From Shewanellaceae bacterium UBA2521 (GTDB taxonomy: Bacteria > Pseudomonadota > Gammaproteobacteria > Enterobacterales > Shewanellaceae): 14,799 bases of DNA. Positions 2,088-14,365 of this stretch are shown here, piece after piece. The stretch's first letter is position 1; each line of letters opens with the position of its first letter. The position numbers and the translations under genes are program-made. The notes below the pieces were generated by a model, which was not told where the DNA came from, did no database searches, and was given only the letters and a program-made list of their open reading frames with translations. Location: the NCBI GenBank assembly GCA_002341165.1, contig DDNL01000009.1, positions 4,370-19,168 of the forward strand, given 5' to 3'.

Positions 2088-2148
2088 AGGATTCTTTTTA
2101 ATATAAATAGTCTTTGTTACTTATACTCCATTTTTGAGATTAATTTTT

Positions 2149-4440
2149 ATGATGTTTAAAAAAAATAACCTTGCAATCCTAGTAGGATTTACTTTTTGTA
2201 CACCAAAGCTCTTTGCTCAGGAAGTTCAGCAGTTAGATACTGCCCATATTCAAGCTGAACATGTTGAAGAAGAGGATGTTATTGCGCCTCAAAGCCTTGT
2301 GACATCGGACGCTATTGATCGTGATTTGATACAAGATAGTGTAGATCTCTTTAAACATGATTCTGGTGTTATCATTACAGAAGGATCACGAGGTGGTATT
2401 GCCTCTATTCAAGTTCGTGGTCTTGGTCAGGATCGAGTGAAGGTCATTATGGATGGACAGTCACAATCAACTTTTACTGTGAAGGGTGGTTCTGTCCCTT
2501 ATATTGATTCAAGTATGCAGCTTTCTGATCCTGAATTTATTAAACAAGCTAAAGCCATCAAGGGTGCGCAGTCGAGTCGTTATGGTTCTGGAGCTATGGC
2601 CGGTGTTGTTAAAATTGATACCAAAGATCCCGAAGACTTAACGAAAGGTAAACCTTTCGGTGGATACCTTAAATCTGGCTATCGATCCAAAGATGCATCC
2701 TTTAAGCAAACACTAGGGTTGGCGACAGAACATGAATCTTTTAGAAGTTTATTGATGCTATCTTATTTACAAGGTGAAGAATTACAGCGTTCAAGTGATT
2801 TCATCTATCAATCAAATGATACAAAGTATTTAGAAAAAAAGAACCTAAATATCCTAGCTAAAATGGCTTACCGTCTAAATGATAGCCATGATCTTAAAAC
2901 CTATTATCTTTCATCACATGGTGATAATGAATCTGACTTAATCCACACAACGAAAAAAGACTACCATTCTGACGACCAAAACAGAAGATACCAGATAGGT
3001 TTAAGTCACGATTGGAATCAAGACTTAACGGTGGCAGACCATATCAAAACACAAGTGACATGGTCAGAGAAAAAGAATCAACAAAAGACAAGCTGGCTTG
3101 AACTTGGATCTCAAGCTCAAGCTCAATCTCCACATGGGCATGTTCATGGGCATGGTGCAGGTGATCATGCACATGGTACAGCCGGTCATGCACATGGGCA
3201 TGTTCATGCACATGGTACAGGCGATCATGCACATGGTACAGCCGGTCATGCACATGGTGCAGGTGGTCATGCACATGGTGCGAATCAAGCAAAAACAGAT
3301 GTAAAAGATAAGTCTAAGCTTAAGGATTATCGCTATAAATCAACCCACCTTTCTATAAAAATCGATGCGGACAAGAAGAACGACGTTTTTGATACGCATT
3401 ATGGTGTAAGTTTTGATACCATCAAGAATGCGAATGATAATACCGAGTATACGACTGTTGACGGCAAAAGGTCTCAAAGGAATATTTTTTATACACCAGA
3501 AGTTAGCACAAACCTTTATGCGGGATACGTTTCAACGGATATTAAATTGTTCGAAGAACAGCTTATCGTGAAGCCATCGATAAGGTATGACTATGTTGGT
3601 ATCAAGCCCCAGAGAGCATCTTTATCAGCAGCAATCAACAAGAAAACGCCTGATTATACATTTTCGCATGTGAGTAAAGGGCTGGCTTTAGAGTGGTTGC
3701 CGACACAACAACACAAGCTTGTTTTATCTGTCAAGGAAGGTTTTAGAACTCCATCTTATCACGATTTATTTTTCCAATGGGAAAACCCGGCATATCAATA
3801 TGCAGTGGTACCTAGTGCTGATTTAAAAGAAGAGACCGCGATCAATTACGGTATAGATTATACCTATAACTCTTTGCAGTCTCGCACGTCGTTAAGGTTA
3901 TTCTACAGTGATTACGATGATTTTATTGATACAAATTCAACAAAAGAAGATGGTATATCTATACAACGTAATACCAATATTGCTAAAGCAACCATTAAAG
4001 GTATTGAGTTTTCTCATGTTGTTTATTGGCAAAGTGACTTAGCTACAGCAGAAGGATTTTCAACAGGTTTCTCTGCTCAATACTACAAAGGTAAAGATCA
4101 GCACGGAAATCGTCTCAGCAGCGTTTCGCCTTGGTCAATGAATTTAAATCTGAGCTATGATGGCGTAGGCAAGATGTGGGGTACAGGCCTTAAAACAACT
4201 TATACAGCGAAGTCAAGCAGTGTTAGTAAGAATAGCATTGAGATTCCAAGCGTAAAGATGATGGACTTTACCCTTTATTATAAGCCTATCGAGCGCATAA
4301 AATTGACGGCTGGAGTCTTCAATATTTTAGATCAAGAGGTTTACAAATGGACAGAAGTCAAAGATGCAAGTAAGCCTTTGACAGATAGAATGAAGCAAGC
4401 AGGGCGTAACTACGGTCTTTCTATTGCTTACCAATTTTAA
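2149..4440 (+). CDS. TonB-dependent outer-membrane receptor, heme/hemoglobin-receptor-like, with a His-rich insertion
   Basis: Start taken as ATG 2149, giving signal peptide MMFKKNNLAILVGFTFCTPKLFA/QEV. The plug motif is IQVRGLGQDRVKVIMDGQ. FRTPSYHDLFFQWENP resembles the FRAP...H...NPNL heme-receptor signature. The C-terminal barrel strand ends ...GLSIAYQF. Heme-gene context supports the call. Confidence 0.88.
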   Translation: MMFKKNNLAILVGFTFCTPKLFAQEVQQLDTAHIQAEHVEEEDVIAPQSLVTSDAIDRDLIQDSVDLFKHDSGVIITEGSRGGIASIQVRGLGQDRVKVIMDGQSQSTFTVKGGSVPYIDSSMQLSDPEFIKQAKAIKGAQSSRYGSGAMAGVVKIDTKDPEDLTKGKPFGGYLKSGYRSKDASFKQTLGLATEHESFRSLLMLSYLQGEELQRSSDFIYQSNDTKYLEKKNLNILAKMAYRLNDSHDLKTYYLSSHGDNESDLIHTTKKDYHSDDQNRRYQIGLSHDWNQDLTVADHIKTQVTWSEKKNQQKTSWLELGSQAQAQSPHGHVHGHGAGDHAHGTAGHAHGHVHAHGTGDHAHGTAGHAHGAGGHAHGANQAKTDVKDKSKLKDYRYKSTHLSIKIDADKKNDVFDTHYGVSFDTIKNANDNTEYTTVDGKRSQRNIFYTPEVSTNLYAGYVSTDIKLFEEQLIVKPSIRYDYVGIKPQRASLSAAINKKTPDYTFSHVSKGLALEWLPTQQHKLVLSVKEGFRTPSYHDLFFQWENPAYQYAVVPSADLKEETAINYGIDYTYNSLQSRTSLRLFYSDYDDFIDTNSTKEDGISIQRNTNIAKATIKGIEFSHVVYWQSDLATAEGFSTGFSAQYYKGKDQHGNRLSSVSPWSMNLNLSYDGVGKMWGTGLKTTYTAKSSSVSKNSIEIPSVKMMDFTLYYKPIERIKLTAGVFNILDQEVYKWTEVKDASKPLTDRMKQAGRNYGLSIAYQF
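3133..3279 (+). repeat. Coding His-rich low-complexity tract (17 His in 49 aa) with an internal ~60-nt duplication
   Basis: HGHVHGHGAGDHAHGTAGHAHGHVHAHGTGDHAHGTAGHAHGAGGHAHG. The string GATCATGCACATGGTACAGCCGGTCATGCACATGG occurs twice, about 60 nt apart (near 3162 and 3222). This tract generates three overlapping shadow ORFs in the track. Confidence 0.9.
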
Positions 4441-4517
4441 ATCAAATTGTTTTGTAAATTGATACCTGATTTTTGTGATATAAATCTTAAACATCATTTA
4501 CGAGCAAGACGCTAAAA

Positions 4518-4553
4518 AATAGCGAAGGTCAGGTTACCTTCGCTATTTTTTTT
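4518..4553 (+). terminator. Rho-independent terminator downstream of the TonB-dependent receptor gene
   Basis: Perfect 12-bp stem AATAGCGAAGGT (4518-4529) / ACCTTCGCTATT (4536-4547), 6-nt loop, then a T-run to 4553. An A-run precedes the stem, so it could act bidirectionally. Confidence 0.8.
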
Positions 4554-4781
4554 GTGCTACACCTATGATGATAGGTGCTGCTTTATTGACTTAATCGTTG
4601 CATATCTAAAAAATGTTGTACGATAATGCACTAAAATTTATATGATAAAAGTAAGCGGTATGCATAATATTTCTTCAACCAATTTATTTCGTATTATTAA
4701 TAAAGCACCTAATAAAGAGATACCCAACTAACATCACTCTATTTAAGTTCATTCAACGAAACCTTTTGACTAAATCATTAA

Positions 4782-4815
4782 ATGGATATCTTTGGAGAAA
4801 ATACAAGACATCCAT
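4782..4815. repeat. Dispersed hairpin-repeat family, site a: right-arm motif followed 8 nt later by left-arm motif
   Basis: AATCATTAAATGGATATCTTTGG (arm at 4782-4795), then CAAGACATCCAT (4804-4815). The same two motifs occur at 5157-5244 in the opposite order. The arms here pair with 11 Watson-Crick pairs, 1 mismatch and 1 bulge. Confidence 0.6.
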
Positions 4816-4844
4816 AGAGTTTAGTTACACCCCAAAAATATATA

Positions 4845-4897
4845 TTTTTTGTTTTTTTTGTTTTTATTTTGTTTTGTTTTTGTTTTTTTATTTTTTT
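4845..4897 (+). repeat. 53-nt T-rich tract (T4-T8 runs interrupted only by single G or A)
   Basis: TTTTTTGTTTTTTTTGTTTTTATTTTGTTTTGTTTTTGTTTTTTTATTTTTTT. It lies between the repeat element and the small GG-leader ORF. Confidence 0.85.
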
Positions 4898-4965
4898 ATG
4901 TTAAGTTAAATGCGCCATCAAAATATGGTTAAAAATAAATTTAAAAAAATAAAGAGGATGTTAAA

Positions 4966-5133
4966 ATGAAAGTCATTCAAAAAGAAAATTTATCTCAAGT
5001 TTCCGGTGGTTTTTTAGAGACTCTATTTGTCTCAACTTTTATTGCTACTGTCGTCAATATGATTACAGAAGATGAACCATCTGTAATTGTCGCTTATGAT
5101 AGCAGCAAAGAAGGTTGGATTAATAATAGATAG
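4966..5133 (+). CDS. Small secreted-peptide precursor with a double-glycine leader (class II bacteriocin/microcin-like), 55 aa
   Basis: Below the ORF-track size cutoff. AAGAGGA (4952-4958) lies 7 nt upstream of the ATG. Translation: MKVIQKENLSQVSGG/FLETLFVSTFIATVVNMITEDEPSVIVAYDSSKEGWINNR. The 15-aa leader aligns position-for-position with the colicin V leader MRTLTLNELDSVSGG, with hydrophobic residues at -12, -7 and -4 and VSGG at -4 to -1. Confidence 0.55.
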   Translation: MKVIQKENLSQVSGGFLETLFVSTFIATVVNMITEDEPSVIVAYDSSKEGWINNR

Positions 5134-5362: not shown

Positions 5363-6031
5363 GTGTTATGCTCTGTTCAGCCAGATAGTTTTGAAACGCT
5401 TTTGCTAAATATTGAGCACCTTGGTCGCTATGAAACAGCAAAGGCTCCGTCGGCTTACGCAGGTTGATGGCCATTCTTAAAGCTTCGAGCACCAAGTTGG
5501 TGTTTTGGGTAGATTAAATACGCCAGCCAATGACTCGGCGAGAATGCAAATCCGTCACCACCGCCAAATAGCACCAACCTTCTGCGGTTCGCAAGTAAGT
5601 GACATCGCCAGCCCAAGCTTGATTGACAGACTCAGGGTTAAAGCGTTGATTCAACTCTTTTTGAGCTTCTGTTTTGGGTTTAATGAGCGATAAGGGCTTT
5701 TTCGGCGCTGTTTGACCACCAAACCCAGCTTGTTCATGAGACTTCTGGTCTTATAACGGCCAATTTTAAAGCCCTCACGGCGCAAATGCTGCATCATTTG
5801 CCTTGAGCCTAAGCTTTGACGGCTGGCTTTAAAAAGCGCCTTACAACGCGATTCCAGTACTTTTTGGGCAACATAAGGCTGCGATTCTGGCTTCTTGAAC
5901 CAATCGTAAAAGGCGCTGCGACTTACTTTCAAGACCTGACACATCAGCAAAACCGGGTAAACCGCCTGATAAGTCTCAATGAAGCGGTACTTTACTTCAT
6001 TTCTTTGGCAAAAAATGCGCTGGCTTTTTTT
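5363..6031 (-). pseudogene. IS3-family transposase OrfB (rve/DDE integrase), pseudogene
   Basis: Own translation from the A7 site in the -1 frame gives ...KYRFIETYQAVYPVLLMCQVLKVSRSAFYDWFKKP...[10 protein letters not shown]. The frame then breaks at a T5 run (5698-5702; 6 would restore it). Reading resumes as [60 protein letters not shown], followed by an in-frame TAA at 5514-5516. It continues STQNTNLVLEALRMAINLRKPTEPLLFHSDQGAQYLAKAFQNYLAEQSIT and then homology ends. Confidence 0.8.
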
Positions 6032-6282
6032 AAGATTTCATGCTCTTGCTGCAAACGCTTATTTTCACGGCGTAAGCGCATTAATTCAGCGCGTTCTTCG
6101 GGTCTTAAAGCTCCTTCAGCCTGGTTTTTCTCGTACTTGACCTTCCAATTAGAAAGGATTTTTGCGGTCACGCCCACAGTTTCAGAAGCCTCTTTTAGGC
6201 TATAATTATGCTCTAAAACCAGTCTGACTGCTTTGTCTTTAAATTCCTGAGTATAGGTCCTATATTTGCGTTTTTCTGTCAT
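5992..6282 (-). CDS. IS3-family transposase OrfA (HTH)
   Basis: Start taken at ATG 6282-6280, with GAGGTG 4 nt upstream. MTEKRKYRTYTQEFKDKAVRLVLEHNYSLKEASETVGVTAKILSNWKVKYEK...LRRENKRLQQEHEILKKASAFFAKEMK is the canonical IS3/IS911 OrfA pattern, including the leucine-zipper end and the A7 frameshift window. Confidence 0.8.
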   Translation of the reverse strand: MTEKRKYRTYTQEFKDKAVRLVLEHNYSLKEASETVGVTAKILSNWKVKYEKNQAEGALRPEERAELMRLRRENKRLQQEHEILKKASAFFAKEMK

Positions 6283-6341
6283 GATCACCTCGGATTGAGT
6301 GTTTATTGTCCACCATTTAAATGTCCGGTTCAATTAGACCA

Positions 6342-6431
6342 TAATAGTCTTATATTTGCGTTTTTCTGTCATGATTACCTCGGGTTGAGTTTTTATTATC
6401 CACTATTTAAATGTCCGGTTCAATTAGACCA
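6342..6431 (-). mobile_element. Solo left end of a second, related IS3-family copy (IR, 5'UTR and about the first 9 orfA codons)
   Basis: 6351-6431 repeats 6261-6341 with 5 mismatches in 81 nt, at a 90-bp period. It includes the same TGGTCTAATTGAACCGG terminus (ending 6431) and ATGACAGAAAAACGCAAATAT. It stops where the full copy's terminus begins. Confidence 0.75.
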
Positions 6432-6444
6432 TAATATAGCCCAA

Positions 6445-6518: not shown

Positions 6519-6547
6519 ATGACTTATAGATACACTTAACATAAAAT
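6519..6547 (+). promoter_or_regulatory. Candidate sigma70-type promoter for the five-gene operon
   Basis: ATGACT (6519-6524), a 17-nt spacer, then TAAAAT (6542-6547), about 40 nt upstream of ATG 6588. Hexamer matching in AT-rich DNA is weak evidence. Confidence 0.25.
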
Positions 6548-6587
6548 ACCGCTTAAGTTGTTGTTTTTAAACGAAAAAGAGGTCGTT

Positions 6588-7682
6588 ATGGTGAGTTTTC
6601 TCCGTATTTATAGTGTTTTGGGATTAATGGTAGTAACTTCGGTATTTGCTGAAACTAAAGAGCAGCAAACGAAGCGAACTCTATTACCTATGCACCAATA
6701 TTTATCTCAAGATGAATTATGGTTATCAGCTAAAGATGACATGCATGATAATGATATTAAAACCGTTGCAGTTTATTTCAATGGGCGCACTACACAGGAT
6801 GTCACTCAAGGTCAAGTTGATACGTTTCAATATGCCATTGAAAATAAAATCCAAAATACGGGTTTTACTGTTCGAACATGTATTGAATGTACCAAACAAC
6901 GCGTCCATTTAAGTAAGAAAAAAATAAAATACAAAACCGGTATAGAAAACAACCAAGAACTGCGTTCTTTAGGTAAAAATATTAACGTCGATGCTTTTTT
7001 AGTCTGGCGTTTATCTAAAAACTTCGATGGCTATGATTTAAATATGAAGATTATTAATGCACACACAAATAAGGTTGTGTGGATTCGTAGTTTTCAAGCA
7101 GATACAGCAGCTAAAGAAATCAAAGAGATTAAATATCCTTCACAATGGGGAGTTGCTATTGGTCACTTAGGTTTAAAAGGTGAAGCAAATATTCCTTTCA
7201 ATCCAAATATTGATGGTAGTGGTCAGTGGAAAGATCGTTTTAGCACGGTTCGCGATATCAGTATTCGTTACTACACGCGTCACAAGCCAGGTGAAAATCT
7301 TCATTACGCTATTATCGGTAACTTTTTTATGAGCGTTCCAGAAGCAGACCAAACTGCTAAGGACTTGAAAGGTCTGGGCAAAGCTGACTTTTCTGTACAA
7401 GGCGTTGGTCTTGAAGGACGTGTTTTATACAACTTTTCTCAGGACACTTTTCTAAATCCAAGTGCCTATGTTGGTGTTGGTATTTCCAGTGTAAATGAAA
7501 GACAAAAAATAAGTGCACGAACAGGGTTTGAATTTGCCTTCATGGAAAATGCGTTTGTTGATGTTGGCCTCATTTATATTGACCCTGTTGAGTACGAGTT
7601 CAAAGAGAACAATTGGTCGCAAGATAAAGCAAAATTTGCTGACTCAATCGGTACAGATTTTACCATTGGTATAAGGTTTTAA
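6588..7682 (+). CDS. Secreted protein, 364 aa: FlgO/CsgG/LpoB-like alpha/beta N-domain plus putative C-terminal outer-membrane beta-barrel-like domain
   Basis: Start at ATG 6588, with AAAGAGG 5 nt upstream. Signal peptide MVSFLRIYSVLGLMVVTSVFA/ETK. The N-domain pattern is TVAVYFNG...TFQYAIENKIQNTGFTVRTC...LGKNINVDAFLVWRLSKNFDGYDLNMKIINAHTNKVVW. This resembles the AV.PF.N ... L...G.F.VV.R ... LGADa.l.G.v......y.l...lid..tg.vvW fold family. The C-terminal half has alternating-hydrophobic strands and ends ...DFTIGIRF with a terminal Phe. Confidence 0.5.
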   Translation: MVSFLRIYSVLGLMVVTSVFAETKEQQTKRTLLPMHQYLSQDELWLSAKDDMHDNDIKTVAVYFNGRTTQDVTQGQVDTFQYAIENKIQNTGFTVRTCIECTKQRVHLSKKKIKYKTGIENNQELRSLGKNINVDAFLVWRLSKNFDGYDLNMKIINAHTNKVVWIRSFQADTAAKEIKEIKYPSQWGVAIGHLGLKGEANIPFNPNIDGSGQWKDRFSTVRDISIRYYTRHKPGENLHYAIIGNFFMSVPEADQTAKDLKGLGKADFSVQGVGLEGRVLYNFSQDTFLNPSAYVGVGISSVNERQKISARTGFEFAFMENAFVDVGLIYIDPVEYEFKENNWSQDKAKFADSIGTDFTIGIRF

Positions 7683-7689
7683 GGTGAAG

Positions 7690-8193
7690 ATGATGAAATT
7701 AAACACACTTTTAATTATGACGATGGTCGCTTTAACCGCTACAGCGGCGTCGGCTGAAGAAGCGAGTTCAACGTCTGAAAAACAGCAGAAAAAATCAAAG
7801 ATGATGAATGTGAATGTGAAAGGTCAAGGCAACATGTATAACTCGGATGTTGATTTTGATTTAAACGATCCAAACGTCATCGTTACGATTGAAACAGATG
7901 AAACAGATGAAACAGAAGACAGTATGTTCGATGAGAAAAAAGCGAATAAATTGCATAGTAAAGCTCAAAAGTTAGCGCGAACGGGTCGTTACCAAGAAGC
8001 CTTAACTTTGCTTAAAGAAGCTGAGACTTTAACAGAAAACCCAGCAAAAATTTTATCGTTGCAAGGGAGCGCTCTATACAAATTAAATCGAATTGATAGT
8101 GCGAAAGATGCGTGGAATGAATCACTACGACACGACTCAAAACAGCCTGAAATTAAACGGATGTTGTCTTGGTTAGAGAAGGAGAAGTCATAA
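7690..8193 (+). CDS. Periplasmic TPR-like protein, ~167 aa
   Basis: AAGGTGA overlaps the upstream stop. ATG at 7690 (or 7693). Signal peptide MKMMKLNTLLIMTMVALTATAASA/EE, then an acidic linker with ETDETDETED. Two TPR-like helical pairs follow: ANKLHSKAQKLARTGRYQEALTLLKEAETLTENP and AKILSLQGSALYKLNRIDSAKDAWNESLRHDSKQP. Confidence 0.6.
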   Translation: MMKLNTLLIMTMVALTATAASAEEASSTSEKQQKKSKMMNVNVKGQGNMYNSDVDFDLNDPNVIVTIETDETDETEDSMFDEKKANKLHSKAQKLARTGRYQEALTLLKEAETLTENPAKILSLQGSALYKLNRIDSAKDAWNESLRHDSKQPEIKRMLSWLEKEKS

Positions 8194-9842
8194 TGAGACA
8201 GGTTAAACATATAATTTTATGGGTATTGCTCGTATCTTGTAGCGCTATGGCACAAGACAATACATCGTTAAAACTAAAACAAATGTCGTTTTCGGCAGAG
8301 CTAGAAAGTCGTTTAAACAGCGATGTTGAGCGAGTTATTGGAACCAATAAGCACATTTTATCGGTGCGCTCTGAATTTGTTTATGATGCAAAAACTGCAT
8401 CAAACAAGACTGATTCGATCGATATGGATATATCGGATGCACCTGATTTACCTGGATTATCGGGTATGCCGGCTATCGATGAGCCGAAACCAGCTAAAAA
8501 AGCAGTAAAAGAGCCAATGATTCGTTCGTTTAATACGAAATTAATTTTGGACCAGAGTGTGACCGCTGAACAAGAACAGTTATTACGTGGTTTGTTACTT
8601 CAGAAATTAGAGTACGACCCTATGCGTGGTGACCAATTTAGCATAACGCGTGCAGAACTTGATACAGCATCAGCTGTTGATGAGATTCAATCCTTATGGG
8701 ATGAGTACTGGCCTTTAATAGCTGCCTTAGCTGCTTTATTACTATTGTTACTTATTTGGTTCATCGTACGTCGTTCATCGAAAAAGAAAGATGCTGATGT
8801 TGCACCGGTAACATTAGATAAACCAACTTCGCCAGAAGCATTGCTTGATATGAAAAAAGGTGAGTTAAAAGCGATTCGTGAAAAGCTGGTTAAACAAAGC
8901 TTAAGTGAGCCTGAAAAAACAAAAGAAGTGATGAGCAGCTTGAGTTTAAATGAGCAGAACTTGCCTATGTTGTCGTCAACATACCAAGAGCTTGGACGTG
9001 CTTTATTTACATCGATGTATCCAACTTTGGTACCCAATATTCCAAGTTATTTGAAGTATTTAGAAGAAAATCCAACAGATTACGATGGTTTAGTACGTCA
9101 CTTAACCGATTTAAATCATTTGCTTTCAGATGCGCAATCATCGGATCAATTTGAAAATAAAGTGAAGCCTTTTGGATTCTTAGAGCGCATGACGGATAAT
9201 CAAATCCGTTGGGTACTCGATGACGAATCAGATCGTGTGAAAGCGGTTGTATTATGTCAGTTAAGCACAGACAAAGCGTCTAAATTGCTAACAACTTTTA
9301 ATGCCCAGACGCAAACACAATTAGCCATTGAGATTGCTCAGTTTAAATCGATGCCGATGACAACCTTTAATGAAGTTGCTGCATCATTAGCTGTAAAAGC
9401 ACGTTCAGTGCCAGATTTTAATACGATTGCTGTTGATGGCACACAATTACTTATTAAGATGTTAGATAGTATGAATTTATCGCAAGCAGAAGCTTTGGTT
9501 TCTCAGTTGAAATCGAGCTCGCCAGATATCTATCTAGATCTTCGACAAGTGTATTACATGTTTGAAGACATCTTGAGAACACCTGCGAATGTATTGAGCA
9601 ATCACTTACGTACGATGGAACCAAAAACGTTAGCCTTAGCCCTTTCAGAATTTACGGAAGAGCAAGTGGGTAAAGTATTATCGTCATTCCCTGAGCGTTT
9701 TGTTGCGATGTTGAAGCAAGAAATTCAGCAAGTAACGGATTTAGATAAAGGCAATGTTGAATCTGCTAAGCAGCAAGTCACCTTAGTTATACGTGAAGCG
9801 TTGAAAAACAAGCAGTTCAGTATGAATGATTTAGAGGTGTAA
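8193..9842 (+). CDS. Membrane-anchored FliF-like ring-building-motif / FliG-like (middle + C-terminal domain) fusion protein, 549 aa
   Basis: ATG 8193 overlaps the upstream TAA (TAATG), with GAAGGAG upstream. Signal peptide or lipobox MRQVKHIILWVLLVSC-SAMA-QD. The periplasmic segment 8301-8660 is FliF RBM3-like. One TM helix YWPLIAALAALLLLLLIWFIV (8706-8768) is followed by RRSSKKK. The cytoplasmic segment 9168-9839 matches FliG_M (PFGFLERMTDNQIRWVLDDESDRVKAVVLCQLSTDKASKLLTTFNAQTQTQLAIEIAQ). It also matches FliG_C (FEDILRTPANVLSNHLRTMEPKTLALALSEFTEEQVGKVLSSFPERFVAMLKQEI...VESAKQQVTLVIREAL). Confidence 0.65.
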   Translation: MRQVKHIILWVLLVSCSAMAQDNTSLKLKQMSFSAELESRLNSDVERVIGTNKHILSVRSEFVYDAKTASNKTDSIDMDISDAPDLPGLSGMPAIDEPKPAKKAVKEPMIRSFNTKLILDQSVTAEQEQLLRGLLLQKLEYDPMRGDQFSITRAELDTASAVDEIQSLWDEYWPLIAALAALLLLLLIWFIVRRSSKKKDADVAPVTLDKPTSPEALLDMKKGELKAIREKLVKQSLSEPEKTKEVMSSLSLNEQNLPMLSSTYQELGRALFTSMYPTLVPNIPSYLKYLEENPTDYDGLVRHLTDLNHLLSDAQSSDQFENKVKPFGFLERMTDNQIRWVLDDESDRVKAVVLCQLSTDKASKLLTTFNAQTQTQLAIEIAQFKSMPMTTFNEVAASLAVKARSVPDFNTIAVDGTQLLIKMLDSMNLSQAEALVSQLKSSSPDIYLDLRQVYYMFEDILRTPANVLSNHLRTMEPKTLALALSEFTEEQVGKVLSSFPERFVAMLKQEIQQVTDLDKGNVESAKQQVTLVIREALKNKQFSMNDLEV

Positions 9843-9844
9843 GC

Positions 9845-10627
9845 ATGATCTCCTTTAGTAACATATTTGGATTCTTATTAGCGATTGGACTCATATGTGG
9901 TTCAATCATGATGTCGACAGACAACTATTTGTTGTTTGTCAGCATCTCAAGTTTGATTATCGTTGTGGGTGGCTCTTTTGCAGCTTCTCTGGTTGGTTAC
10001 TCATTTCCGTTGGTATTCAGCGCCTTAAAAGGTATTTTACAAAACCTTATGATTGAAGATAACGACATGAAAACCAAGCACATGTCAATTCGACGTATGA
10101 CCGAGTGGAACAACACGTTTCATTCAGGCGGTATCACTGAGTTAGAAAACTCATTAACAGAAAAAGAAAAGAAAGATTCTTTTATCAAGCTAGGTATCGA
10201 TTTAATCGGTACAGGCTACAAAGGTGAAGAGTTACAAGCACTATTGGAAGAAAGCAATGAAAGCCAATCCATGCAAGACATGCGTCATGCTGAAGTGTTA
10301 AATACTTTAGCTAACTTCGCACCGGGTTTTGGTATGGTTGGTACGTTAATCGGTTTAATCGTGATGCTAGATAATTTAAGTGGCGATATGGCGGTACTAG
10401 GAAAAGGCTTAGCGGTTGCTCTTCTTACAACCTTTTACGGTGTTATTTCAGCGCAATTATTTTTTAAACCAGCTTCTATGCGTGTACAACGTCGTGTTGA
10501 GATGGAAGCACATCGTCGAGAAATGCAAATCAGAGCTTTTATGATGATGACGACTAAACGTCCTTCTCTTCACGTTCAAGATCATATGAATGGTTATTTA
10601 CCCTTTAATAAGCGCTTGGAAGATTAA
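9845..10627 (+). CDS. MotA/PomA-like stator A subunit (MotA_ExbB proton-channel family), 260 aa
   Basis: GAGGTG lies upstream and there is a 2-nt gap after the preceding stop. The protein has four TM segments with a ~100-aa cytoplasmic loop between TM2 and TM3. The conserved core is LANFAPGFGMVGTLIGLIVML...MAVLGKGLAVALLTTFYGVISAQLFFKPAS, including prolines at the positions of E. coli MotA P173 and P222. Confidence 0.8.
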   Translation: MISFSNIFGFLLAIGLICGSIMMSTDNYLLFVSISSLIIVVGGSFAASLVGYSFPLVFSALKGILQNLMIEDNDMKTKHMSIRRMTEWNNTFHSGGITELENSLTEKEKKDSFIKLGIDLIGTGYKGEELQALLEESNESQSMQDMRHAEVLNTLANFAPGFGMVGTLIGLIVMLDNLSGDMAVLGKGLAVALLTTFYGVISAQLFFKPASMRVQRRVEMEAHRREMQIRAFMMMTTKRPSLHVQDHMNGYLPFNKRLED

Positions 10628-10629
10628 TC

Positions 10630-11274
10630 ATGGCTAAGAGCAGAAAGAAAGTTGCACTAGAAGAGAGTAATAGTTGGTTACTGACGTACAGTGATGTTGT
10701 CACTTTATTGGTCGCTTTCTTTGTACTTTTAATTGCAACGTCTCAAGTAGATGAAGGTAAGTTGGAAGATGTTAAGCAAGGGTTATCAATAGTGTCGGAT
10801 TCAGAATCACAAACACCGATGCAAGATTTAAGTGAGCAAGTAGAAACGATCATTAAAGAGCAAGAGTTAGCATCAATTAAAGTTAAAAAAGTCATTGATG
10901 GTATCAAAATCGAACTTGATAGTGAAAACTTGTATGAATCTGGATCAGCATCTTTAAAGCCCGAAGGAAAAAAGATTCTCGTTGAGTTTACCAAGGCTAT
11001 TAATAGTGTTGATTTGGATCATCGTAACATTGTGATTGAAGGTCACAGTGACGATGTGCCAATCCGTAACGCTGAATTTCATAACAACTGGGAATTATCC
11101 TCAGCTCGCGCTATTGAAGTGACGTTACATCTTATTGACTTAGGTGTTGACAAATCTAAGCTACGAGCAGTTTCTTATGCTGATTCTCAGCCTAGAGCAA
11201 ATAAGGAATTACCAATCGCGGAGCAGAGACAACAAAATCGACGCGTTGTTATTTACATAAAACGAGCGATATAA
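10630..11274 (+). CDS. MotB/PomB-like stator B subunit with OmpA-like peptidoglycan-binding domain, 214 aa
   Basis: 2-nt gap after motA-like. The N-terminus SWLLTYSDVVTLLVAFFVLL carries the channel Asp in the MotB context (..TYADLMTLL..). The C-terminal OmpA-like domain reads YESGSASLKPEGKKIL...IVIEGHSDDVPIRNAEFHNNWELSSARAIEV...QNRRVVIYI. Confidence 0.8.
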   Translation: MAKSRKKVALEESNSWLLTYSDVVTLLVAFFVLLIATSQVDEGKLEDVKQGLSIVSDSESQTPMQDLSEQVETIIKEQELASIKVKKVIDGIKIELDSENLYESGSASLKPEGKKILVEFTKAINSVDLDHRNIVIEGHSDDVPIRNAEFHNNWELSSARAIEVTLHLIDLGVDKSKLRAVSYADSQPRANKELPIAEQRQQNRRVVIYIKRAI

Positions 11275-11298: not shown

Positions 11299-11322
11299 GT
11301 ACGAAAACATTCGTTTTCGTAC
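11299..11322 (+). terminator. Hairpin downstream of the operon (possible terminator, weak U-tract)
   Basis: Perfect 10-bp stem GTACGAAAAC / GTTTTCGTAC with loop ATTC, 25 nt after the motB-like stop. It is followed by ATTCTCTG rather than a clean T-run. Confidence 0.45.
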
Positions 11323-11363: not shown

Positions 11364-11878
11364 GGCTCCGTTGCAAAAATTTACTTCGTTTTGCTTAAAT
11401 CATTGCCATCTTTACTAAAAAGAGAATTGCCTTTCTATGAGACGCACTTCTCCTAAGATGCCTTGATTTCGAAGCCATACATTCATCTGTTTCTTTCGAA
11501 ACATTCGCATCACTTCAAATCCTTTTAAGGTTGCAAAGGCTGTCTTCATGGATTGAAAACCTCGGGTAGGCTTAATCATTCTCTTTAGCTTACCATGATC
11601 CGACTCAATCCTATTATTCAAATATTTGACGTGCCTGTGCTGAATGATTTGACGACAGACCCCCTCTTTTTTAGAGCTGATAGAGCAGGTGCATAAGCTC
11701 GATCTTTATCGGATTCAAAACGCGGATTTAATCGCTTAGCTTGGTAGATAGAAGGGTGTGCATCAATAATACCTTGAGCAATCTCTTTCACTTTAAAGGG
11801 TTGATAGGGATGTTGCTTTAAAATTTGGAAAATTTGATCGGTTTGACTTAACTTTGACATATCAAGCTTATGCATCAA
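11364..11878 (-). mobile_element. IS6-family (IS26-like) insertion sequence remnant: one terminal IR plus a frameshifted 3' part of the transposase gene
   Basis: GGCTCCGTTGCAAA (11364-11377) matches the IS26 terminal repeat GGCACTGTTGCAAA at 12/14, in the orientation expected downstream of a minus-strand tnp. The other end is missing, and the M66 gene starts at 12002. Confidence 0.7.
11415..11725 (-). pseudogene. IS6-family DDE transposase, C-terminal fragment with a frameshift
   Basis: ...NPRFESDKDRAYAPALSALKK (frame 1) then EGVCRQIIQHRHVKYLNNRIESDHGKLKRMIKPTRGFQSMKTAFATLKGFEVMRMFRKKQ...GEVRLIERQF (frame 2). This parallels remembered Tnp26: PRFINTDKAPAYGRALALLKREGRCPSDVEHRQIKYRNNVIECDHGKLKRII..LGFKSMKTAYATIKGIEVMRALRKGQ...GEMRLVSRVF. 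The frame switches at the homopolymer block 11660-11672. The first ~50 codons of track ORF 11618-11878 are not clearly IS6-like. Confidence 0.7.
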
Positions 11879-12001: not shown

Positions 12002-14365
12002 ATGTTAAATACTAAGAATTATATATATTTTATTTTTCTTTTTATATTAGGCTGTGCAGACAGTTCTGAATTTAATATTATTGAAGAAATGCAAGGACAA
12101 CCTGCTCAAGGAGGACAACCTGATCAAGGAGGACAACCTGATCAAGGAGGACAACCTGACCAAGGTGGACAACCTGATCAAGGAGGACAACCTGACCAAG
12201 GTGGACAACCTGACCAAGGAGGACAACCTGACCAAGGAGGACAACCTGACCAAGGAGGACAACCTGACCAAGGAGGGCAACCTGACCAAGGAGGGCAACC
12301 TGACCAAGGAGGGCAACCTGACCAAGGAGGAAGCAACTCGAACCCTCAAAAATTTATTTTTTTCAACCAAAACAATCTTGAAAGTGATACCACAGGAGCT
12401 TTAAGTGGTACCGTGCACTTTGCTCAAAGCACAATCATGCCATCTAAAAATAAAATAAAAGATGATATCCAACCGCACCTTGTTTCTCAGCGTAAAGCTT
12501 TAGTTCTATTTAAGTCTCCAGATTTAGCAGAAGATAAAAACTTAAAAATGAGTATCTATGATAAAAATAATACACTTATTTATCAAAGTAATATGAACCA
12601 TCCCTCGAAATTACCTGCTATTGAGGGGGAATCTATAGAACCTATTTCTTTCAAAAATTTTGAACCTAATCAAACTCTAAATCTCAATACTCAAGCCCAA
12701 TTAAATGATCTTAAAGAAGATCTTTCGGGACAAAGATTAAGCTATTTCTTTAATACATTTGACTTTATTCATGTTCAAACCCAAGATGGAATACATATCG
12801 ATGACTTTCATCTACCTCTTCTCGCTAAAGGTTCTGAAAAGCATATACGTTTTTCATCTAGAGCTGGCTATGATTCAACCATTTACTTTTCAGGCTTAAA
12901 AAGATCCCTTAAAACGAATTTTGTCTTCGATTTTAAGTTCCAGAATCAAACTTGGTACATGAAAAGTCATATGAATCGTATAAAATACGGTTATTTTTGG
13001 AGTGCCCCCTTACCTAAGCAACATGTAAAACCTGGTATAAGTATTCGATTTACGCAAAATGGAGAAAATGGTCTGCTCAGTGCTCATGACATCAAAGTAG
13101 GTCCTGAAATCGAGTTACTTTTACACACCATTGACTTAGGGTTTCTGACTCCTTATCGAGATGAGTTTGACTTTCAAAAAAAAGATAAAAATCATATTGA
13201 GTATTATCAAACTATTCCCATAACAAAACTCATTGTGTCACGATATGAACCTCAACACTTTAAGACTGTAGGCTTACCCGATGGAACAGTCTACAACAGT
13301 AAAAGTGCAACCGACGGCGGTGTCTATACAGGTGATATGCGAAAAATTGGAAAAATTCTTATATCACATGGTATTAATTTAGCTAATTATGGTCTGACTT
13401 CATCTCATCCAACGAGTGAAAGTCCGCACAAATATATGGCTAATCAGATTACAATTCATAACTCTCAAGGTATCTATACAGATAAAGACTCAAAAGCATC
13501 AAAAAAAGTGATTCATGGCTTATCTGGAGGCAATGGTATGCTTACCTTGTCCGATTCTGAAGGTAATGAATTCAGTCATGAAATGGGGCATGCACTAAGT
13601 TTAGGACATTACCCAGGTGGCTTTGAAAGAAGTGTGCATCGCCCAGCACATATGATCAACTCAACTTGGGGGTGGGATAGTGTTCGTAATGAATTTACAC
13701 CTAATTTCGAGCATTATCCTACGAATAAACCTACCAAATATGATGGAGGCGCGAAAGATAAAGATAAAGGGAAGACTGTACAGCCTTTTCATGGACATAG
13801 TTTTGGCAAAGACTCTATGGGAGATGGAAGTCCACTCTATTCGAATCATTACACTTTATTTACTCCCTATACCATGAATAAAATGCAAAAATTTTTGGAG
13901 CGAACACCTCGCTTTGATAAGAATTCATCCACGGGCTTTTCTGTATGGGATGCTAATAAACAGGAATATAGAGAGGCTGCTAATAACGTATCTTCTTCAC
14001 GTAGAAAAGACTTCGGTGTACCTGTAGTCACTTTAGTGGGATATTATGATCCAACTAATACCATTAAATCCTTTGCCTATCCTGCTTTATACGGTAGCTA
14101 TGGTCATACTTATTATAGCTTCCCTAAATGGTTCAATAGCAAATGTCAGCTCACCGTCAAAAACGCTCGTAGAAAAAAAGTAACATTCTTCTTAAATGAC
14201 CGTGTCATTTTAAGAAAAAATATGAATAAATATCATGTCAATATTGCGCAATCATTTAAACCTACGAGTTACGATATAAAATGTCATGGTAAATTTGTTT
14301 TGCCTTCGTTTGCTATTAAACCTAAGAAATTTAATTTAAAAACCCATATTGTAGAAAGCCCTTAA
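12002..14365 (+). CDS. M66-family zinc metalloprotease lipoprotein (StcE/TagA-like mucinase family), 787 aa
   Basis: Lipoprotein signal MLNTKNYIYFIFLFILG-C (lipobox ILGC). The motif NEFSHEMGHALSLGHYPGGFERSVHRPAHMINSTWGWD parallels StcE NEFSHELGHNYGLGHYVDGFKGSVHRSAENNNSTWGWD (HExxHxxxGH). Further StcE-like blocks are SSTGFS.W, FGVPVVTLVGYYDP, YPALYGSYG, CQLTV and MNKYHVNI. Confidence 0.85.
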   Translation: MLNTKNYIYFIFLFILGCADSSEFNIIEEMQGQPAQGGQPDQGGQPDQGGQPDQGGQPDQGGQPDQGGQPDQGGQPDQGGQPDQGGQPDQGGQPDQGGQPDQGGQPDQGGSNSNPQKFIFFNQNNLESDTTGALSGTVHFAQSTIMPSKNKIKDDIQPHLVSQRKALVLFKSPDLAEDKNLKMSIYDKNNTLIYQSNMNHPSKLPAIEGESIEPISFKNFEPNQTLNLNTQAQLNDLKEDLSGQRLSYFFNTFDFIHVQTQDGIHIDDFHLPLLAKGSEKHIRFSSRAGYDSTIYFSGLKRSLKTNFVFDFKFQNQTWYMKSHMNRIKYGYFWSAPLPKQHVKPGISIRFTQNGENGLLSAHDIKVGPEIELLLHTIDLGFLTPYRDEFDFQKKDKNHIEYYQTIPITKLIVSRYEPQHFKTVGLPDGTVYNSKSATDGGVYTGDMRKIGKILISHGINLANYGLTSSHPTSESPHKYMANQITIHNSQGIYTDKDSKASKKVIHGLSGGNGMLTLSDSEGNEFSHEMGHALSLGHYPGGFERSVHRPAHMINSTWGWDSVRNEFTPNFEHYPTNKPTKYDGGAKDKDKGKTVQPFHGHSFGKDSMGDGSPLYSNHYTLFTPYTMNKMQKFLERTPRFDKNSSTGFSVWDANKQEYREAANNVSSSRRKDFGVPVVTLVGYYDPTNTIKSFAYPALYGSYGHTYYSFPKWFNSKCQLTVKNARRKKVTFFLNDRVILRKNMNKYHVNIAQSFKPTSYDIKCHGKFVLPSFAIKPKKFNLKTHIVESP
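12092..12331 (+). repeat. 18-bp in-frame tandem repeat encoding QGQPAQ-(GGQPDQ)x12-GG
   Basis: Twelve full units lie between 12110 and 12325, at an exact 18-nt period. They differ only at synonymous positions (GAT/GAC, GGA/GGT/GGG), with variants clustered along the array. The array produces two long shadow ORFs in the track. Confidence 0.95.

Follow-up and report, generated by a model that had tools for sequence, protein, structure and literature searches.

To our knowledge, FliG is regarded as specific to the flagellum, and the known non-flagellar relatives of the MotAB stator all use other partners; Zorya, since added to the 5:2 motors, likewise has no FliG. Reviews of 5:2 motors list ExbBD, TolQR, AglRQS and GldLM, none of them with FliG, and the main text of a 2025 phylogeny of MotAB relatives contains no FliG-linked non-flagellar group. 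The five-gene operon described here lies at positions 6588-11274 of a 14,799-nucleotide stretch from Shewanellaceae bacterium UBA2521 (contig DDNL01000009.1, positions 4,370 to 19,168; the whole stretch is called the window below), DNA that belongs to a contig of 121 kb from the Tara Oceans marine metagenomes and recurs in identical copies in several other assemblies. It combines a flagellar-type stator with a protein in which, judged from sequence and structural model, the C-terminal half of FliF is naturally fused to FliG. Taken together, the evidence tips slightly towards an operon that encodes an autonomous, flagellum-derived rotor-stator machine with a non-propulsive output.

The closest natural precedent is the FliF-FliG fusion of Chlamydiaceae (Bergeron 2016, PMC4768692), in which a shortened FliF (ring-building motifs (RBMs) and a transmembrane (TM) segment) is joined to a FliG-like cytoplasmic domain in the absence of a complete flagellum. 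The third product of the operon (g3) resembles it in being a natural union of a shortened FliF with a FliG-like domain outside a complete flagellar system. However, the chlamydial protein has ~330 residues, with an RBM2-like and one further RBM-like domain and only a FliG_M-like piece of FliG, it has no dedicated MotAB, and it has been proposed to work with the injectisome. By contrast, g3 has 549 residues, an RBM3-like domain, FliG N-like, M and C parts, and a stator in its own operon. Engineered full-length FliF-FliG fusions from Salmonella and Vibrio alginolyticus (PDB 8z4d) also assemble MS-ring-like rings; unlike g3, these are laboratory constructs with all three RBMs, studied within a complete flagellar system.

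The operon comprises five tightly spaced open reading frames (ORFs), g1 to g5, all on the plus strand. A preliminary description of this stretch, made from the sequence alone, had noted their close packing, and its coordinates and junctions are all borne out:

6588-7682, plus strand: g1, with an ATG start preceded by AAAGAGG; an alternative TTG start lies at 6558.
7684-8193, plus strand: g2, with a GTG start at 7684, or an ATG start at 7690 that gives a 7-nt gap after the g1 stop (7682).
8193-9842, plus strand: g3, sharing a TAATG overlap with g2 at 8191-8195 and preceded by AAGGAG.
9845-10627, plus strand: g4 (260 residues), after a 2-nt gap following g3.
10630-11274, plus strand: g5, after a 2-nt gap following g4.

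Unlike FliG, which is soluble and cytoplasmic and uses its FliG_N domain to bind the C-terminus of FliF, g3 is predicted to be membrane-anchored and to carry a periplasmic domain. Its layout is a signal peptide or N-terminal hydrophobic helix, the periplasmic domain, one TM helix and a FliG-like N/M/C part. An AlphaFold2 (AF2) model computed from 13 family sequences, with a mean predicted local distance difference test score (pLDDT) of 75, displays a periplasmic alpha-beta-beta-alpha-beta unit, a disordered insert (residues 66-105), the TM helix and an all-helical cytoplasmic part. The predicted regions are as follows:

8259-8672, plus strand: periplasmic domain, residues 23-160, a FliF RBM3-like fold with the disordered insert, assigned from AF2, Foldseek, profile and Pfam.
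8712-8771, plus strand: TM helix, about residues 174-193, followed by cytoplasmic RRSSKKK, assigned from hydropathy (the AF2 helix covers 162-196).
8832-9140, plus strand: helical region, residues 214-316, at the position of FliG_N, assigned from the Foldseek alignment only.
9198-9413, plus strand: FliG middle domain, residues 336-407, with a degenerate EHPQR motif (DESD), assigned from FliG_M and an alignment with T. maritima FliG.
9504-9809, plus strand: FliG C-terminal domain, residues 438-539, with a torque helix that includes R502 and E510, assigned from FliG_C and Foldseek.

The cytoplasmic part of g3 is recognized as FliG by sequence and by fold. Pfam finds FliG_M (1.2e-16) and FliG_C (4.8e-18), a sequence search of the PDB retrieves FliG at 1.3e-14, and Foldseek aligns the model with full-length FliG (for example 3hjl and 8umx) over 306-330 columns (E 4.8e-9 to 3e-7). 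The C-terminal domain matches FliG_C structures, including the MotAB-bound 8ucs_H, with TM-scores of 0.82-0.89, normalised to the target. Pfam makes no FliG_N call in residues 214-316, where the assignment is by fold only, and the score against the FliG equivalog model TIGR00207 (74 bits) is under its 226.7-bit cut-off.

For the periplasmic part, which is only about 140 residues long, Foldseek returned about 17 FliF MS-ring, S-ring or RBM3 structures (E 2e-3 to 1.5e-2), with PrgK and SpoIIIAG matching more weakly. A profile built from this part of 16 family members matches Salmonella FliF 234-442, that is RBM3 with its collar insertion, at E 6.8e-6. Pfam YscJ_FliF_C is found in 10 of the 16 members (best 6.3e-9), the window copy alone giving no Pfam match, and Pfam YscJ_FliF, which represents SctJ-like RBM1/RBM2, has no match in g3 or in the family members tested. 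These agreeing fold, profile and Pfam matches indicate that g3 is a natural FliF(RBM3-TM)-FliG fusion and the proposed rotor subunit, in which FliG is joined to the RBM3, collar and second TM that make up the C-terminal half of FliF, and RBM1 and RBM2 are absent. RBM1 and RBM2 form the portion of FliF that encloses the export gate. Both the ring-building motif and the FliG-like domain that had been proposed for g3 in the preliminary description are thus recovered by searches.

Two short motifs in the periplasmic part of the g3 family deserve mention in their own right. LPGL (L86-L89, window 8448-8459) is invariant or almost so, although it lies inside the disordered and highly variable insert, and we speculate that it is a docking peptide for g2. 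RGD (R145-D147, window 8625-8633) is near-invariant and aligns to KRGDTLNVV of FliF.

The proteins encoded by g4 and g5 appear, from their domains and key residues, to form a flagellar-type PomAB/MotAB stator with plug, channel Asp, peptidoglycan-binding domain and torque-loop Glu. Pfam finds MotA_ExbB in g4 (7e-24) and both MotB_plug (1e-14) and OmpA (1.2e-16) in g5, in line with the peptidoglycan-anchored MotA/MotB-type stator previously suggested. Among NCBIfam models, g4 is matched best by those of PomA and MotP and by one called simply 'flagellar motor protein' (1e-34 to 2e-35), compared with 6e-4 for ExbB and 8e-3 for TolQ, and its best solved relatives are MotA/PomA entries in the PDB (3e-28 and 1e-23). 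A MotD-type NCBIfam model recognizes g5 at 2.4e-43, under its cut-off, and the best PDB matches of g5 are flagellar MotB, PomB and MotS. Equivalog cut-offs for named stators are missed by both proteins (best 122 bits versus 237 for g4, 149 versus 283 for g5). The pair falls in the flagellar stator group, outside the ExbBD, TolQR, AglRQS, GldLM and ZorAB groups. The machines built on those units (ExbBD-TonB, TolQR-TolA, AglRQS-Glt, GldLM and ZorAB) are comparable in putting MotAB-family ion-driven units to a non-swimming use, but they have no FliG-type partner or FliF-type ring.

A Zorya-like anti-phage or envelope-sensing system, in which the MotAB-type unit would serve as a sensor, could draw on the matches of g5 to ZorB models (5e-21) and of g4 to ZorA (0.004), which reflect generic MotAB homology, and on the mobile-element debris around the window locus. 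However, PADLOC gives no match for g1, g2 or g3, g4 with its 260 residues has no long ZorA tail, and neither ZorC/ZorD nor an effector such as a nuclease is present. Elsewhere the module sits among housekeeping genes (pyrG, eno, ispDF), and both g4 and g5 score far higher against flagellar stators. We consider such a system very improbable; assignment to Zorya or another defence system was rejected, with only generic ZorB homology to support it.

Rotor positions were mapped through an alignment with T. maritima FliG and stator positions through an alignment with PomA, using what we take to be the residue numbering of E. coli FliG and of PomA. The equivalent of FliG R281 (R502 in g3) is Arg or Lys in 121 of 140 family sequences and in all 14 complete modules, and that of D288/D289 (E510 in g3) is acidic in 14 of 14 complete modules. 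On the stator side, the equivalent of E96/E98 (E96 in PomA) is Glu in all 18 g4 sequences aligned, and that of R88/R90 is Arg in 14, His in three (the window copy among them) and Asn in one. P151, T158, T186 and P199 of PomA are kept in all 18 sequences, T185 in 16 of them, and the channel Asp of g5, set in a T-Y-S/A-D motif (TYSD in the window), is present in 15 of 15. The rotor-stator charge pair therefore appears to be conserved in these alignments. The FliM-binding motif EHPQR reads DESD in window g3; across the family only its Glu is kept (130 of 140), with the H, P and Q positions varying, a loss that fits the absence of FliM/FliN near the module. The FliG C-terminal domain of g3 has an MFxF-like hinge, YYMFED.

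The module thus shares with the flagellar motor core the RBM3 and collar of FliF, FliG M and C domains that keep main charges of the torque helix (those of R281 and D288/D289), and the rotor-stator charge pair. It differs in that FliF and FliG are a single polypeptide, EHPQR has degenerated, none of the NCBIfam equivalog cut-offs is reached, and RBM1, RBM2, FliM/FliN, export gate, rod, hook and filament are not part of it.

The two upstream genes are predicted to add partners in the outer envelope. As had been observed earlier, g1 has an N-terminal signal-like segment and a terminal motif of outer-membrane type, the ORF ending ...TIGIRF. Pfam FlgO is found in 11 of 17 g1 family members (best E 1.1e-5), and one member matches OMP_b-brl at 0.0064. 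The g1 homologs have a plain signal peptide, no N-terminal lipobox Cys, and a beta-rich C-terminal part of ~180 residues ending G-x-R-F; the family profile has no match in the PDB. The protein is fast-evolving, with only two homologs found by word-index search, yet it is recognisable at the syntenic position in many loci and is syntenic with g2-g5 in at least 12 lineages. It is probable that g1 is a secreted FlgO-like protein and an outer-membrane component, its insertion into the outer membrane being deduced from these features. In the Vibrio H-ring, FlgO is a lipidated, outer-membrane-anchored ring. The FlgO-like domain of g1 recalls the H-/T-ring system (FlgO, FlgP, FlgT, MotX and MotY), but g1 is no lipoprotein and carries the additional beta-rich C-terminal part, and the module has no FlgP, FlgT, MotX or MotY.

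A CxEC motif (C98-x-x-C101 in the window, 6879-6890) occurs in nearly all g1 homologs and is absent from the homolog of a high-GC locus (L031, below); its sequence suggests a periplasmic disulfide or metal site.

The TPR protein proposed earlier is found in g2, which matches Pfam TPR_2 (2e-8) with a TPR pair at its C-terminus. Its anchoring differs within the family: most distant lineages have a lipobox Cys (for example locus L018, 6686-7405), and the window and Vibrionaceae copies have a plain signal peptide. The sequences accordingly predict a periplasmic TPR protein that is a lipoprotein in most other lineages. The TPR proteins MotC and MotK act with MotB, and g2 is comparable to the periplasmic TPR stator scaffolds MotC, MotK, PflA and PflB, but it has no specific similarity to any solved scaffold. 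Its identification as a known flagellar TPR scaffold was not sustained, the PDB matches being generic TPR proteins only. With g1 related to FlgO, the set would be more than a rotor and a stator. The description of the locus as a stand-alone rotor-stator set is retained as far as rotor and stator without flagellar neighbours are concerned, and is widened by the FlgO-like g1.

These outer partners bear on a second explanation, that of a Ton/Tol-type envelope energy transducer, in which the stator would work on the cytoplasmic side of g3 and the work would be relayed through the TM helix and periplasmic collar to g2 and g1, gating or powering transport, secretion or outer-membrane maintenance, with sustained free rotation of a ring not being the point. 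The predicted locations do span inner to outer membrane, g1 has a beta-rich, porin-like C-terminus and one OMP_b-brl match in its family, TPR domains typically bind extended peptides and g3 offers the invariant LPGL in its disordered insert (a pairing that we infer), and all other non-flagellar MotAB relatives operate in this manner. However, g4/g5 are of the flagellar and not of the ExbBD/TolQR type, they are paired with a protein that couples the torque domain of FliG to the ring-building domain RBM3, the equipment of a ring that rotates, and a TonB- or TolA-like periplasm-spanning element is missing. Its composition overlaps with that of a rotary machine, whereas output and kinematics differ; we regard the transducer as unlikely, though the likeliest of the alternatives considered.

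An exhaustive profile search of 1.84 billion cluster representatives returned 189 g3-like proteins at E <= 1e-30. Among the 150 representatives listed, about 140 are 500-780 residues long and have a common layout of an N-terminal hydrophobic segment, ~200 periplasmic residues, one TM helix and ~350 FliG-like residues. The named hosts are Aliivibrio fischeri, A. logei and A. finisterrensis, Vibrio penaeicida, V. nigripulchritudo, V. agarivorans and Vibrio sp. SCSIO 43136, together with a Marinomonas sp. and a 'Gammaproteobacteria bacterium', both metagenome-assembled genomes (MAGs). A word-index protein search from a 54-sequence alignment retrieved the same Vibrionaceae proteins only.

Synteny was assessed by local HMM mapping of fetched loci (designated L001 and so on). 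The full order g1-g2-g3-g4-g5 is found in the window, in the five Vibrionaceae species fetched, three of Aliivibrio and two of Vibrio, and in the metagenomic loci L016, L018, L019, L020/L033, L021, L026, L028 and L029, and is kept in at least 14 distinct lineages, a conservation far beyond chance. The Marinomonas MAG is among the genomes with this order, and the block occurs in many aquatic bacteria. The g3 proteins of these metagenomic loci share 25-31% identity with the window copy, that of the more distant L016 about 21%, and what the short contigs L022-L024 and L035 show fits the same order. Variants comprise L031 (67% GC, a 306-kb contig), with g3-g2-g1-g4-g5 and a second, inverted stator pair; L038, with g3-?-g2-g4-g5; and L037, with g3-g4. 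Locus GC ranges from 30% to 67%, and the flanks hold housekeeping genes (pyrG, eno, ftsB, ispD, ispF, truD, fumarase). No flagellar family recurs in the flanks, none occurs in the Pfam tables of L001, L005, L007, L016, L017 and L038, and no FliM/FliN was found near the module in the loci examined.

Three observations concern individual loci. In L031 (11509-14553) the two stator pairs are mirrored (A-B-B'-A'), and the residue at the PomA T185 position is Ala in each of the A subunits. Two types of stator may act on a single rotor in this locus. In L016 a TraF_2-like outer-membrane beta-barrel protein (12108-13517; 469 residues, 6e-6) directly follows the stator genes and may be an additional outer-membrane partner. 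In the three Aliivibrio species (A. fischeri being L005/L015) the module is immediately preceded, on the same strand, by genes for a sensor kinase and an OmpR-type response regulator; this two-component pair, absent from the window, could be a dedicated regulator.

This distribution effectively refutes the notion that the operon is a decaying, functionless remnant of a second flagellar system. That notion can point to the wealth of IS fragments on the window contig and to the flagellar homology of the components, but the five ORFs are intact and occur in identical copies on several independent contigs, architecture and key residues are kept in about 140 representatives and in no fewer than 14 syntenic lineages, and the fusion of FliF to FliG characterises the family as a whole rather than being an accident of this locus. 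Given this conservation, we find a remnant scarcely credible.

Dual stator systems are common, and this counts for a further explanation, in which the module is an accessory of the ordinary flagellum: alternative stators, a FliG-like docking or parking ring and a scaffold that tune the canonical motor to viscosity, surfaces, ion type or host. In V. fischeri ES114 the module lies on chromosome II, where its stator genes have been published as motA2/motB2 (VF_A0186 and VF_A0187); the whole operon would be VF_A0183-0187, the three upstream tags being assigned by position. An accessory role would suit the named hosts, all of which are flagellated, the flagellar ancestry of every part, including the resemblance of g1 to the H-ring protein FlgO, and the down-regulation of motA2/motB2, along with that of fliA, in a single biofilm model of V. 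fischeri. However, motA2 and motB2 insertion mutants swim normally in soft agar, FlrA, the master regulator of the flagellum, does not activate transcription of motA2B2, and motA1B1 drives the flagellum, so that the stator orthologous to that of the module, unlike a flagellar core component, is not needed for swimming. Moreover, the module brings its own ring-building rotor protein, needless for an alternative stator, has lost the FliM-binding motif and is never beside flagellar genes in the loci examined. An accessory of the flagellum is, in our estimation, decidedly unlikely.

The reading of the locus as a non-flagellar machine had been proposed in the preliminary description together with three findings that would speak against it, and the results obtained here go the other way in each: FliG and FliF similarity was recovered; the host has another flagellar set besides the operon, since in V. 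fischeri motA2B2 is a second, dispensable stator pair beside the flagellar motA1B1; and the homologous clusters checked lie outside flagellar loci, among housekeeping genes. The non-flagellar reading is thereby supported, with rotation and a non-flagellar output being what we infer from it.

For the favoured rotor-stator machine, the following mechanism is proposed, every step of which draws on homology to the flagellar motor. Through its FliF-RBM3-like domain, g3 would oligomerise into an MS/S-ring-like ring in the inner membrane, and because FliG is fused to the ring protein, this ring would present the FliG C-terminal torque helices at its cytoplasmic face. The g4/g5 proteins would form PomAB/MotAB-type 5:2 ion-driven units, anchored to peptidoglycan by the OmpA-like domain of g5, in which ion flow through the conserved Asp/Thr/Pro channel would turn the g4 pentamer. 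The cytoplasmic loop of g4 (Glu and Arg or His) would engage the g3 torque helix (Arg/Lys and Glu/Asp) and, in the manner of a flagellar stator, drive the g3 ring. In the periplasm, g1 (FlgO-like) and g2 (TPR) would serve as a scaffold or coupling partner anchored to the outer membrane, parallel to the Vibrio H/T-rings and to the TPR stator scaffolds MotC, MotK and PflB. With the FliM-binding motif degenerate and FliM/FliN absent, the motor would neither switch nor follow chemotaxis, and in the absence of RBM1/2, export gate, rod and FliM/FliN a ring without an axle or switching is predicted. The output would be some mechanical work on the envelope rather than swimming. FliF RBM3 has been solved in rings of 33-34 subunits (PDB 8ftf, 8zdt, 6sd1). 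The fuller proposal, a widespread autonomous rotary nanomachine in which a FliF(RBM3)-FliG ring of ~30 subunits with its own PomAB-like stators and a FlgO-like/TPR scaffold would perform an ion-driven, non-motility envelope function, we put forward more tentatively, as a little short of an even call.

Several observations weigh against such a rotor-stator machine. Ring formation, contact between g3 and g4, and rotation are argued by analogy, and it is hard to see what purpose a rotating ring would serve if nothing is attached to it. Every named host (Aliivibrio, Vibrio, Marinomonas) is flagellated, which makes a link to the flagellum possible. The equivalents of FliG K264 and R297 are not conserved in the g3 family (140 sequences), and window g4 has His in place of Arg at the R88/R90 position. 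Some loci are less complete: L032 has g2-g3-g4-g5 without g1, L007/L008 have g3-g2-g1 with no stator detected nearby, and L017 and L030 have g2-g3 only, with no adjacent stator. For g1, the window copy matches Pfam FlgO below threshold (E 0.04, 14.2 bits, under the 22.6 cut-off), and its AF2 model, computed from three near-identical sequences, has a pLDDT of 29.

Signals around the operon and the insertion sequence (IS) remnants on either side of it are the following:

6519-6547, plus strand: candidate sigma-70-type promoter (ATGACT-17-TAAAAT) upstream of g1, from a consensus scan (9/12 matches).
11299-11322, plus strand: hairpin after g5 with a 10-bp stem and a weak T-tail, from a terminator-like scan (consensus match only).
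5651-6333, minus strand: fragments of an IS3-family remnant with HTH_21 and HTH_Tnp_1 ORFs, upstream of the operon (5651-6436 with a duplication); context only.
11415-11621, minus strand: IS6/IS240 DDE transposase fragment, downstream (DDE_Tnp_IS240 6e-12, last 43 profile positions only); context only.

The 9/12 score of the promoter candidate is no better than that of shuffled sequence, and inspection by eye upstream of g1 for a sigma-28 promoter gave only a poor match with wrong spacing. The hairpin is a possible operon terminator. Rfam finds no RNA families in the window.

The IS remnants do lie on both sides of the operon, as the term 'IS-bracketed' in the preliminary description implied, but they belong to different families and have no matching terminal repeats. 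A repeat scan around the operon detected neither matching terminal repeats nor a flanking repeat pair, and a composite transposon was ruled out, with an IS3-type element on the left, an IS6-type element on the right and no flanking repeat pair. The module is present in other genomes without IS elements. The bracketing appears incidental and specific to the window contig, the window sequence offers no evidence for a mobile unit, and the earlier suggestion that the operon may be mobile was not upheld. The only repeat feature there is a tandem duplication of 90 nt at 6257-6436, its copies 93% identical, which takes in the 5' end of the IS3-family orfA remnant together with the region upstream of it and doubles a promoter-like TTTAAA-18-CATAAT, both copies of which face the operon. 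In 2013, the V. fischeri study found motA2B2 to be unique to V. fischeri among complete Vibrio genomes; the patchy distribution in Vibrionaceae is compatible with horizontal transfer or loss.

The operon neighbours are genes for a heme-type periplasmic binding protein, a PNPOx-like protein, a TonB-dependent receptor and an M66/StcE-like peptidase, together with the IS fragments; the heme uptake genes, protease and IS debris noted earlier are matched by this Pfam annotation. The gene of the TonB-dependent receptor (2134-4440, predicted heme-type) contains at 3131-3281 a His-rich repeat (HGHVHGHGAGDHAHGTAGHAHG...) encoded by a 21/60-nt tandem array; the repeat may form a loop that binds metal or heme, or be a place where the number of repeats varies. 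Between this gene and the IS remnant, window 4450-5000 is AT-rich (27% GC) with T-rich simple repeats, and metagenome annotations call only tiny ORFs there. The M66/StcE/TagA-like metalloprotease gene (12002-14365) carries 13 copies of an 18-nt repeat (95% matching) at 12094-12331, encoding (QGGQPD)n just past a lipobox-like LGC; this is likely an extended linker and possibly a site of length variation. About 5 kb past the operon on the same contig (L001 16502-19842) lies a very large gene whose 3911-residue product has RtxA and Peptidase_C80 domains and, by sequence, is predicted to be a MARTX-type toxin. The host of the window DNA is probably an animal-associated marine gammaproteobacterium.

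Full-text literature searches, which did not cover subscription-only papers, found no prior description of the module, and these flagellar-motor parts in a new stand-alone architecture are apparently undescribed. If rotation and a non-motility output were shown, the module would represent a new class of machine: a conserved stator with a FliF-FliG fusion away from flagellar genes would carry the FliG-stator torque mechanism beyond swimming and would constitute the first FliG-based rotor outside flagella and a minimal natural model of rotor-stator coupling. Its five proteins would offer a minimal system for structural and single-molecule study, without switch complex or export apparatus, and would bear on the origin of flagellar rotation, as either a spin-off of the flagellar motor or a relative of a pre-flagellar rotor. 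For V. fischeri, a squid symbiont that is genetically tractable and suited to cryo-electron tomography, the module provides a concrete hypothesis for the unexplained motA2B2 genes.

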